DNA of 64,000 bases from a virus (Duplodnaviria; Heunggongvirae; Uroviricota; Caudoviricetes): positions 1-64,000 of IMG/VR virus record IMGVR_UViG_3300015615_000629; one strand, given 5' to 3'. Positions 115 through 35,132 of the stretch are shown here, in pieces (the stretch's first letter is position 1; every line of letters starts with the position of its first letter). Made by a program: the position numbers and the translations under genes. The notes beneath the pieces were generated by a model that did no database searches, was not told where the DNA came from, and saw nothing but the letters and a program-made list of their open reading frames with translations.

Positions 115-429
115 TTAGCAGGAGGGAGGATTTTGGTTATAGTCTTGTTCTTGCAACCAATTCATTAACGATAACGCATCGTCGATTGGTGCTCCAGTCT
201 CATTCAGAATCTCAGCCCCACAATCGGCACAACCGTAATAGTTTACGGTTGCCTCGTCATCCCCACCATCCTCGTAAGAAACTTCGTCCTGGTTGTAATC
301 GAGAAAACACTCATTCTCGACTATTTTAATTGCAGTGATTGGACTGGTTTTGGTAGTGGTACAAGTCAAAACCTCTTCCAATTTCGTGCCACCGCAATCG
401 GGACAAATAAATTTGAGTGAATCAGCCAT
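115..429 (-). CDS. Zn-ribbon hypothetical protein
   Basis: CPDC and CADC pairs; start moved to ATG 429, 9 nt after the motif at 439. Confidence 0.7.
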   Translation of the reverse strand: MADSLKFICPDCGGTKLEEVLTCTTTKTSPITAIKIVENECFLDYNQDEVSYEDGGDDEATVNYYGCADCGAEILNETGAPIDDALSLMNWLQEQDYNQNPPSC

Positions 430-446
430 GCCTACTCCGGTACAGG

Positions 447-524
447 TTAGAGACAGCAGACGCAAATGCAATAAAAATAAATCGCAAATAGCGTCAAGAA
501 AATGAAATGCCCCGCCGTTCTCAT
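447..524 (-). CDS. 25-aa hydrophobic microprotein
   Basis: ATGA overlap with upstream stop; TAA fused to motif. Confidence 0.35.
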   Translation of the reverse strand: MRTAGHFIFLTLFAIYFYCICVCCL

Positions 525-30801: not shown

Positions 30802-30894
30802 GGACCCCGACGGGACTCGAACCCGCATTACTTGTTTTTCACAAGCAACCCGAAGATTTAGAATCTTGGACCTTACCAATTAGGCTACGGGGTC
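30802..30894 (-). tRNA. amber suppressor tRNA (CUA) with long variable arm
   Basis: GACCCCG/CGGGGTC acceptor, D arm with GG, TT-CTA-AA loop, 9-bp variable stem, GCGGG-TTCGAGT-CCCGT T arm. Confidence 0.8.
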
Positions 30895-31968: not shown

Positions 31969-32190
31969 TGTTCCTCCATTGAAACAAAAACAAGGACAGT
32001 GTATAGGTCATACAGGAGCCTATACGGGAATGCGAGTTACGGTACAGGTTTGGTTTGAAGCAGTTTTGTGGCCAACTTAGGCCCTATTTTGACAACTTTT
32101 GATTTAACTTTGGGTTTCTTTGCCCATTTGCCCGCTTTCATGGCTTTTACCATTTTCTCGACGCTCAGCATGTTAATTCTCTGGTACAGG

Positions 32191-32409
32191 TTAGAATTCT
32201 GCCTTGTCCCATTGGCTTAGGCCAATCGATCCAGGTAAAACACGAACCTCTGGCGGTGTGTGCGACATCTTTGTAAAGAGTTCATTTGAGTCTGGCTTAA
32301 TATTCAAACTCAAACCCATAGGTTGCACAACAATTGATGCCCTACTCACAGAGTTTGTTATAATTACTGAGCCATCGGGTAAAGATTTAATCTCAAGCAT
32401 TTTTGGCAT
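32191..32409 (-). CDS. hypothetical protein
   Basis: ORF; stop fused to motif 32183. Confidence 0.55.
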   Translation of the reverse strand: MPKMLEIKSLPDGSVIITNSVSRASIVVQPMGLSLNIKPDSNELFTKMSHTPPEVRVLPGSIGLSQWDKAEF

Positions 32410-32560
32410 CCAAATAATCAGAAAGTTCTTTACCTTCTAAAAGTGTCAGGGATGCTATTTTATCTCCAATCTCCCTGATATGGTCTGAAAAATCGCTAGA
32501 CGCTGCCGTTCCTTTTCCGTTATGCGGAGGTGGCGGGGCCATCACAACTTGAGTTTCCAC
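32393..32560 (-). CDS. ribosomal protein bL12 (L7/L12) N-terminal-domain-like small protein
   Basis: GTG 9 nt after motif 32570; 55 aa ending ...FSDHIREIGDKIASLTLLEGKKLSDYLDAKNA. Confidence 0.65.
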   Translation of the reverse strand: METQVVMAPPPPHNGKGTAASSDFSDHIREIGDKIASLTLLEGKELSDYLDAKNA

Positions 32561-32838
32561 TAGTTCTCCGGTACAGATTCGGCCTGTCGTATTTTCTTAT
32601 CCAGAATAATCATAGATTCGGTAGTTGCGTTGCCAAGTGTTTTGTAGTGCATTACACAATGGCAAATATCGGTAGAAAAAGTGGCTTCAAATTCAATCCA
32701 TAAATTTTGAGTATCTCCCCATGTTCCAATAACTTTAGCCCCTGGCGGTAGTTTATCTGCGAAATAACTTGGAGACAACTTATCGGCCGGAACAGCACAA
32801 CCCGCCAACAATACACAAAACAACAACAATTTACGCAT
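32560..32838 (-). CDS. lipoprotein
   Basis: LLAGC lipobox. Confidence 0.7.
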   Translation of the reverse strand: MRKLLLFCVLLAGCAVPADKLSPSYFADKLPPGAKVIGTWGDTQNLWIEFEATFSTDICHCVMHYKTLGNATTESMIILDKKIRQAESVPEN

Positions 32839-33617: not shown

Positions 33618-34034
33618 TTAAACTTTGGCTTGGGACTGTGGGACAAAAAAGTTGCTATCGTGAAAAATATCTGATTTATGCCTGCACAAAACCTCCCCTT
33701 TAAGAGCATGGTCTTTCCAAAGATTGTAATAAGTTGTAATAAAAGACCTACTAAATTTAGTTGTCCAGAACAAGTCGATAGATGCCAATAATGAATTTTC
33801 TTCATTCCAATGTGGATCAAGTTCTTTTCCTAAGCAAATGTCGCCATTTTCGGTAATATTTGGAAAAAGTATGTACTTTTCTTCTTCGCCAACCAACGCA
33901 AAAACTCTAACATTGAATATATTATCCCTATTCTTAAAACCATAGAATTTTAATGAGGGAAAATTAATTACAAAAATGTCGCCATAAACTGACACAATAG
34001 TTCTGGTTTGGGGTGGGAATTTTTTAGTAACCAT
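33618..34034 (-). CDS. prokaryotic E2-like (family D-like) protein, paralog 1
   Basis: PPQTRT...FPNITENGDICLG...FWTTKF. Confidence 0.6.
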   Translation of the reverse strand: MVTKKFPPQTRTIVSVYGDIFVINFPSLKFYGFKNRDNIFNVRVFALVGEEEKYILFPNITENGDICLGKELDPHWNEENSLLASIDLFWTTKFSRSFITTYYNLWKDHALKGEVLCRHKSDIFHDSNFFVPQSQAKV

Positions 34035-34733: not shown

Positions 34734-35132
34734 TTAAAAGGTTAGTTTACCTTGCGGAATTTCGCCAGCAAATATAGAGTTCCAAAACCTATCAATTGAT
34801 TCTAAGGCTATTGCTTGTGGGTCTTTTCCATAAAAGTAAACCGGCCCTAAACAAACAATTCCAGTAAATGCGTCCACATTAGGAAGAAAAGGTGCTCGCC
34901 AAAGAAAAAAGTATTTTCTAAAAAGGACACAAAAGCGTTCCATTTCATAATTATCTTTTATCTTCTTAAGATAAATATCAAATTTTATCGACGGAAACTG
35001 GACATATCTTGTTCTATTATCATATAAACTATCCAAATATAAAACCGTTCGCTTCTTAGGCGGACATATTACAGACAATACATATCTATTTTTGTAGGGC
35101 GGGGAGCACCTTTTTAATTTCTTAAACTTCAT
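34734..35132 (-). CDS. prokaryotic E2-like protein, paralog 2
   Basis: PPKKRT...LPNVDAFTGIVCLG...FWNSIF. Confidence 0.6.
   Translation of the reverse strand: MKFKKLKRCSPPYKNRYVLSVICPPKKRTVLYLDSLYDNRTRYVQFPSIKFDIYLKKIKDNYEMERFCVLFRKYFFLWRAPFLPNVDAFTGIVCLGPVYFYGKDPQAIALESIDRFWNSIFAGEIPQGKLTF

Follow-up and report, generated by a model that had tools for sequence, protein, structure and literature searches.

A family of headless bL12 proteins in giant, probably planctomycete-infecting phages, with a predicted role at the ribosomal stalk

A short gene behind a promoter-like motif

The window analysed here, 64,000 nucleotides in length, opens a virus record of 572,167 bp that is 100% complete and has direct terminal repeats. 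On its minus strand lies a 55-codon ORF (32393..32560) that runs from a GTG at 32560 to a TGA stop ending at 32393 and encodes a Pro-rich extension followed by the N-terminal domain (NTD) of ribosomal protein bL12, with neither hinge nor head. The GTG is located exactly 9 nt after CTGTACC (32576-32570), as the initial annotation had stated; the heptamer ends a promoter-like AAYCTGTACC motif (32570..32579, minus strand) which is also a breakpoint in related phages. The protein sequence quoted in that annotation agrees with the DNA except for one residue: EGKKLSDYL should read EGKELSDYL, Lys having been given for Glu45, and the correct version is nearer to host bL12. The codon score exceeds 0 solely in the frame of this ORF (0.147 vs −0.28 to 0.01 in the other frames), and the first residues of homologues fall at this position too (METQ...), so that the start is well supported by motif spacing, codon score and the METQ homologues. 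A 92-aa lipoprotein-like gene lies upstream (32560..32838, minus strand), its TAG sharing one base with the GTG of the 55-aa gene; no homologue of it was seen beside family members in the family loci compared. Fusion of the 2 ORFs by read-through or frameshifting was rejected, since the frames differ and the homologues begin at the METQ position. An SD-like GGAGA, 4 nt before the GTG (32565..32569, minus strand), would be usable solely on transcripts begun farther upstream. Because the start codon is GTG and leaderless starts in E. coli require AUG (PMC4611024), the gene may use this GGAGA or be coupled to the overlapping upstream stop.

Across the genome, AYCTGTACC is present in 126 copies on the minus strand vs 3 on the plus strand, with 122 copies falling within 0-75 kb and 550-572 kb; copies in the window include those at 32047, 32189, 32576, 33492, and 34732. 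An ATG-led ORF begins at exactly 9 nt from 41 copies, vs about 2.3 expected, and a purine occupies this position in 88%. The pattern points to a phage promoter that would yield largely leaderless transcripts from a small-gene region spanning the genome ends, and the motif-linked genes may be expressed early. Several homologues of the 55-aa gene have SD-led starts.

Together with a 72-aa ORF (32191-32409), the 55-aa gene makes up an accessory module (32168..32573, minus strand) that is replaced in a close relative, a status which the initial annotation had missed. In this related phage, a single joining contig from run X1, with a depth of about 5, connects 32167 to 32574 with 56 other letters in between, and loose ends at 32167 and 32570 were found in run X3. 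Given the junction of 32167 to 32574, the 2 genes appear to have been swapped at the motif and not to be essential. Elsewhere in the window, 2 ORFs resembling the prokaryotic E2 family D (33618-34034 and 34734-35132, minus strand; below cut-off) flank a metallophosphoesterase gene. Genome-wide recoding is not indicated, as long ORFs terminate at all 3 stops; ARAGORN called tRNAs with CTA and TCA anticodons at 30802-30894 of the window (minus strand) and at G000:C1:286239-286310 (minus strand).

A planctomycete-type bL12 hairpin without hinge or head

The initial annotation had read the ORF as a planctomycete-style bL12 NTD, an identity borne out by sequence, profile and fold comparison as well as by a family of 61 proteins. 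The HMMER comparison with Ribosomal_L12_N (PF16320) which it proposed as a check did return a match (E=0.001, profile positions 2-24 of 48), but at 19.1 bits this falls below the gathering cut-off of 25 bits. A profile of 30 planctomycete-type NTDs scored the ORF at 51.9 bits, a value which is partly circular because the profile was assembled from hits to the phage family; the best of 5,000 shuffles reached 9.1. Among the genome's 3,372 ORFs, the 55-aa ORF is the sole strong match to this profile (all others ≤10.5 bits), and the only longer proteins retrieved with the 55-aa query were full-length L7/L12.

The AlphaFold2 model contains 2 helices, at residues 26-36 and 40-52, with pLDDT above 90. 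Lack of a structural match to the bL12 NTD had been named in the initial annotation as grounds for rejecting its reading; in a comparison with 48,161 solved chains, the NTDs of mitochondrial bL12m and Thermotoga bL12 ranked 1 and 2, with the modest Z scores (3.7 and 3.3) that a hairpin would be expected to give. The superposition on Thermotoga 1dd3_C aligned 30 residues at an rmsd of 1.5 and 37% identity (Z 3.3). Foldseek against the PDB gave 2 rows only, both mitochondrial ribosome chains (E 1.8 and 6.8), and nothing at E≤0.001 with either model; phmmer and hmmsearch against PDB sequences produced weak rows only. The top rows of the ESM Atlas, all under 0.9 and taken as leads only, were L12_N clusters and one viral cluster. 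By model, superposition and alignment, residues 26-55 (32396..32485, minus strand) correspond to bL12 residues 1-30 (Thermotoga numbering). The ORF stops after residue 55 and matches neither PF00542 nor TIGR00855, the genome's only PF00542 match being 76 kb off in another protein. Neither the hinge nor the factor-recruiting C-terminal domain follows the stop, just as had been claimed. These data show that residues 26-55 form a planctomycete-type bL12 NTD hairpin without hinge or head.

A bL12 head does occur in a 409-aa MoxR-type AAA ATPase fusion encoded at G000:C1:108063-109292 (minus strand; equivalent to L003:1177-2406), which carries the head (PF00542, E 9e-24) together with an RNA polymerase alpha C-terminal domain (PF03118, E 2e-15) and whose gene adjoins a possible vWA gene.

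Within the family, conservation of the hairpin core equals or exceeds that seen in hosts. Gly32, Asp33, Ile35, Leu38, Ala43, Leu46, Tyr49, and Leu50 are retained at 82-100% (Gly32 and Leu38 100%, Leu46 98%, Ile35 97%, Asp33 and Tyr49 95% each, Ala43 89%), and Gly32, Asp33, and Tyr49 constitute a planctomycete-type signature. Relative to hosts, positions 40, 44, 47, 48, 51, and 54 (bL12 15, 19, 22, 23, 26, and 29), which lie on one face of helix 2, are relaxed (permutation p about 0.001-0.002). Mean identity is 58% among phage proteins, 67% among host proteins and 54% between the two, and because the family is more divergent than the hosts (58% vs 67%), the relaxation is partly expected. bL12 positions 15 and 29 (ORF 40 and 54), hydrophobic or aromatic/His in all hosts sampled, are kept in 38 and 9 of the 61 members, respectively, position 29 being H/F/Y/W in these 9 vs 100% of the hosts. 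Of these two positions, the 55-aa ORF retains 15 but not 29; it is host-like through residue 50, minus only the His-Gly-Ile end. It ends in Asn54-Ala55-stop where hosts have His/Tyr-Gly, and the motif that closes helix 2 (aromatic/His-Gly-hydrophobic) is absent. In the L10-L12 structure, we take the relaxed face to line the uL10 groove and the kept residues to make up the hairpin and the dimer core. On this assumption, stable entry into the stalk may be weak. Loss of the His/Tyr-Gly-Ile end and relaxation of the helix-2 face weaken the plain stalk mimic reading of the initial annotation, and the residue pattern tilts towards pairing with host bL12 over stable, independent stalk entry.

Residues 1-25 (32486..32560, minus strand) form an extension, about 40% of the protein, on which the initial annotation was silent. 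Alignment of the family defines it as TQ-x4-5-PP-x-N, followed by small residues and aromatic-x-Asp: Pro-Pro is present in 59 of the 61 members, the first such pair 17-22 residues ahead of the Leu/Ile-Gly-Asp anchor, usually with Thr-Gln before it and Asn after. An aromatic residue near position 24 is found in 54 members, and Ile28 and Asp26 are well kept; the central stretch is variable, with low complexity. With pLDDT of about 63 over residues 1-20 (low confidence), the model suggests that residues 1-25 are probably flexible. Host bL12 has no Pro-Pro extension. A leader common to other phage proteins was considered and rejected, since no other ORF of the 572-kb genome carries the extension.

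Family, host and relation to known bL12 proteins

An exhaustive search of 1.84 billion representatives retrieved mostly short proteins like the 55-aa ORF, and a profile search enlarged the family to 61 proteins of 46-76 aa, every one of which ends 3-31 residues past the last core Leu. The family profile, run against 5.8 billion proteins, also retrieves full-length L7/L12 (E about 1e-8). PF16320 is matched by 13 of the 18 members tested (best E 7.6e-8), and several members already bear a precomputed Pfam label. All long family loci read are phage-like, with intact neighbours on contigs of up to 634 kb, and 3 loci are IMG/VR viral records; the designation as a phage family refers to about a dozen loci, those of the minority of the 61 members that were traced to DNA. 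The loci compared have genes in common with the 572-kb phage, and because neighbourhoods differ in nearly every locus, the family gene appears to move. One locus, L104, holds RRF, 2 tRNA synthetases and a Ro60-like gene. No match to the uL10 gene (rplJ) was found in the 572-kb genome or the family loci tested; a control locus with a true rplJ-rplL pair (L111) was detected. Scans of viral contigs with the short query returned nothing or 1-2 loci. In a profile search of 401 Planctomycetota genomes, with at most 16 candidates scored in each, the short form was not found, a result which supports "not found" and not absence; 84 genomes gave a single match apiece, in every case within a reading frame of at least 130 aa, consistent with rplL.

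A tree of the 33-column core was unresolved as to a single origin and the direction of loss. One protein, P0012 (L007:655-1182), is a full-length bL12 with the Pro-Pro extension of the family and a hinge rich in Pro and Glu; its locus is phage-like, and its gene adjoins one for a pyrimidine-dimer glycosylase. By its sequence, P0012 links the family to real bL12 and suggests descent from a captured whole gene. A differently arranged 59-aa ORF is encoded by L095 (about 300-477, plus strand), a 15-kb viral contig of 65% GC unlike the giant phages; here, the bL12 hairpin comes first and a Pro-rich stretch lies behind it.

On a set of bL12 proteins, the family profile scored 33-50 bits with 20 proteins from Planctomycetota and at most 23 with the rest, including Brocadia. 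Planctomycete-type bL12 (33-50 bits) was also seen in 3 MAG contigs labelled Anaerolineales, Fibrobacteraceae, and Alcaligenaceae (L060, L028, and L042), possibly mis-binned. Judged from the 55-aa gene, the host is likely a planctomycete. The planctomycete marker families PF07595 and PF07596 have no match in the 572-kb genome, and the bL12 head found in the MoxR fusion says little about the host.

Bacterial bL12 of the planctomycete type (rplL, PF16320; PDB 1dd3 and 1rqt) has the same 2-helix hairpin, as a full 30-residue domain with a hydrophobic core, and the same Gly-Asp...Ala...Tyr-Leu signature. The phage family differs from it in lacking the hinge and C-terminal domain, in having about 15 extra N-terminal residues with Pro-Pro, in mostly lacking the His/Tyr-Gly-Ile end, in its relaxed helix-2 face, and in being phage-borne and not beside rplJ. 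Thus, with no hinge, head or rplJ linkage, the 55-aa protein may function as a truncated bL12 would, but it does not belong to the rplL family. A second set of headless proteins, the lipoproteins P0056, P0009, P0023, and P0060, consists of a lipobox and 2 tandem planctomycete-type bL12 NTD repeats (the gene at L102:6001-6396 is in a cellular-looking locus), and was modeled as a confident 4-helix structure (pLDDT above 90 for 68 residues). They share the headless hairpin with the phage family and differ from it in the signal peptide and lipobox, the 2 repeats, the retained His-Gly-Ile and the cellular-looking context. To our knowledge, they are not a described family.

Phage bL12 genes as such are known (Mizuno et al. 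2019, PMC6375957), and L7/L12 is also on record for huge phages (Al-Shayeb et al. 2020, PMC7162821). The examples from cultivated phages in Mizuno et al. come under Ribosomal_L12 and are described by residues contacting uL11, EF-G, and EF-Tu, that is, by the head (PMC6375957). In the literature searched, published phage bL12 are head-domain or full-length proteins, and an anchor without a head is the mirror image of the head-domain type; both are pieces of bL12 encoded by accessory phage genes in variable contexts, and the 55-aa protein is virus-encoded as they are but has no Ribosomal_L12 head domain. An IMG/VR contig (L115:1995-2360) encodes a full-length bL12 of non-planctomycete type, with no rplJ-sized ORF just upstream. 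An NTD-only family was found neither in PHROGs nor in NCBIfam, no GenBank phage matched, and no paper on such a family was found in the open literature searched. The headless bL12 family of about 60 proteins, phage-borne wherever checked, is thus apparently undescribed.

Possible roles at the ribosomal stalk

Residues 1-37 of bL12 form the dimerizing NTD; the antiparallel 4-helix dimers attach to uL10 helix 8 along segments of 10 residues, and it is the heads that bring in IF2, EF-Tu, and EF-G (PMC3299993). With one bL12 dimer fewer in E. coli, subunit joining by IF2 is 2-fold slower and EF-G steps are slowed 1.5-fold, dipeptide formation (EF-Tu steps) being unaffected, and variation in dimer number has been proposed as a way of tuning translation (PMC3299993). 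Isolated NTDs bind L10 in the L10-(L12 NTD)6 crystal complex, and the single-dimer E. coli strain JE105 slows the IF2 and EF-G steps (PMC3299993). These reduced stalks have the effect proposed here for the phage protein, but they are laboratory constructs, not natural regulators, and keep the terminal aromatic residue, unlike most phage members. A dedicated natural regulator of the number of bL12 on the stalk was not found in the literature searched.

The reading we favour, to which we give about an even chance, is that of a headless bL12 which related giant phages took from a planctomycete host and retain as an accessory, probably early gene, and which pairs with host bL12 or uL10 and lowers the number of heads on the stalk. 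The hairpin of the phage protein would still be able to pair with those of bL12, and the dimers could be mixed (phage/host) or phage homodimers. A mixed dimer might bring one head, not two, to uL10 helix 8, or else be unable to load and drain free bL12; by either route, infected ribosomes would have fewer factor-binding heads, and the Pro-rich extension would be shown at the stalk base. Since fewer heads slow IF2 and EF-G and spare EF-Tu in E. coli, the expected effect would be tuning of translation, not shut-off. The phage invests in translation, with 40 tRNA calls, an IF3 that scores above its cut-off and a weak match to bS21 (G000:C1:163850-164104 and 170865-170981, minus strand). Planctomycete uL10 tails have, by inspection, apparently 3 segments; a complex prediction run without controls on 2 copies with the family alignment and a planctomycete uL10 C-terminal helix gave a score of 0.08, under the mark of 0.32, and carries no weight for or against binding. 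Against head depletion stand the need of a phage for fast translation, which makes a pure inhibitor costly, the conserved extension, which competition alone leaves unexplained, the replacement of the gene in a close relative, and the tandem-NTD lipoproteins, which show reuse of the NTD away from the ribosome.

The extension would be accounted for if the hairpin were only an address and TQ...PP.N recruited a phage or host protein, such as a protease, modifying enzyme or factor, to bL12/uL10, an adaptor that would have the binding step in common with the favoured reading and a different purpose. Absence of the extension from hosts, its fixed distance from the hairpin in 59 of 61 members, its occurrence on full-length P0012, and the well-kept Ile28, Asp26 and aromatic at about residue 24 all fit such a role. 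We nevertheless regard it as unlikely: there is no co-conserved partner gene, the neighbours changing almost from one locus to the next, the extension has a variable, low-complexity middle, and in the L095 ORF the Pro-rich sequence comes after the hairpin, not before. The link to the ribosome might also have been lost altogether, with a self-pairing hairpin presenting the Pro-rich peptide to an unrelated target. Such repurposing, which would fit the relaxed helix-2 face and the loss of the His-Gly-Ile end, has parallels in the off-ribosome tandem-NTD lipoproteins and in the same phage's reuse of a bL12 head with the RpoA C-terminal domain in its MoxR ATPase, yet similarity to the host NTD is high (54% phage-host vs 58% phage-phage) and the planctomycete signature is intact, so that the protein would hardly escape pairing with the plentiful bL12 of its host; we consider repurposing doubtful.

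That the hairpin acts together with a phage bL12 head from another gene, as a split bL12, is very improbable. Diverged head-like genes do lie about 2 kb downstream in L104 (10092-10466) and L096 (7127-7564), and the 572-kb phage has the head inside the MoxR ATPase, but a linker or recognisable complementary surface is absent, the head genes are strongly diverged and not adjacent, none was found in a 259-kb record (G406, 50% complete), and head-only genes are common in phages by themselves (PMC6375957). A Pfam score below cut-off and replacement in a close relative could suggest that the ORF is what remains, without function, of an rplL once captured, or that its gene call is truncated. Yet core residues, start region and length range are shared by 61 diverged members, genes of the family are embedded in contigs as long as 634 kb where the neighbouring genes are intact, and the 55-aa gene stands at the genome's favoured spacing behind the motif. 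Family conservation already largely refutes this explanation, and its chance is very small.

The favoured head depletion could be part of a broader strategy in which giant phages of planctomycetes regulate ribosomes via stalk composition: an early headless bL12 would enter or deplete the stalk, slow IF2 joining on leadered host mRNAs more than on the phage's apparently leaderless transcripts, and display a peptide at the GTPase centre. We hold this to be improbable. The leaderless bias, speculative in itself, is weakened by the likewise IF2-dependent initiation on leaderless mRNAs (PMC4611024) and by the SD-led starts of several homologues.

The proteins constitute a conserved headless bL12 family of giant, probably planctomycete-infecting phages, with a predicted role at the stalk. 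The family complements the known head-only phage bL12 genes and offers a marker of the host for the giant phages of Planctomycetota, a group about which little has been described. Even if binding fails, it documents the reuse of the bL12 hairpin as a module. With a conserved phage anchor of 55-70 residues that lacks the head, the idea of stalk tuning becomes directly testable with one small protein. If true, regulation of stalk valency would be a natural mode of control, which in the literature searched has so far been shown only with engineered ribosomes.
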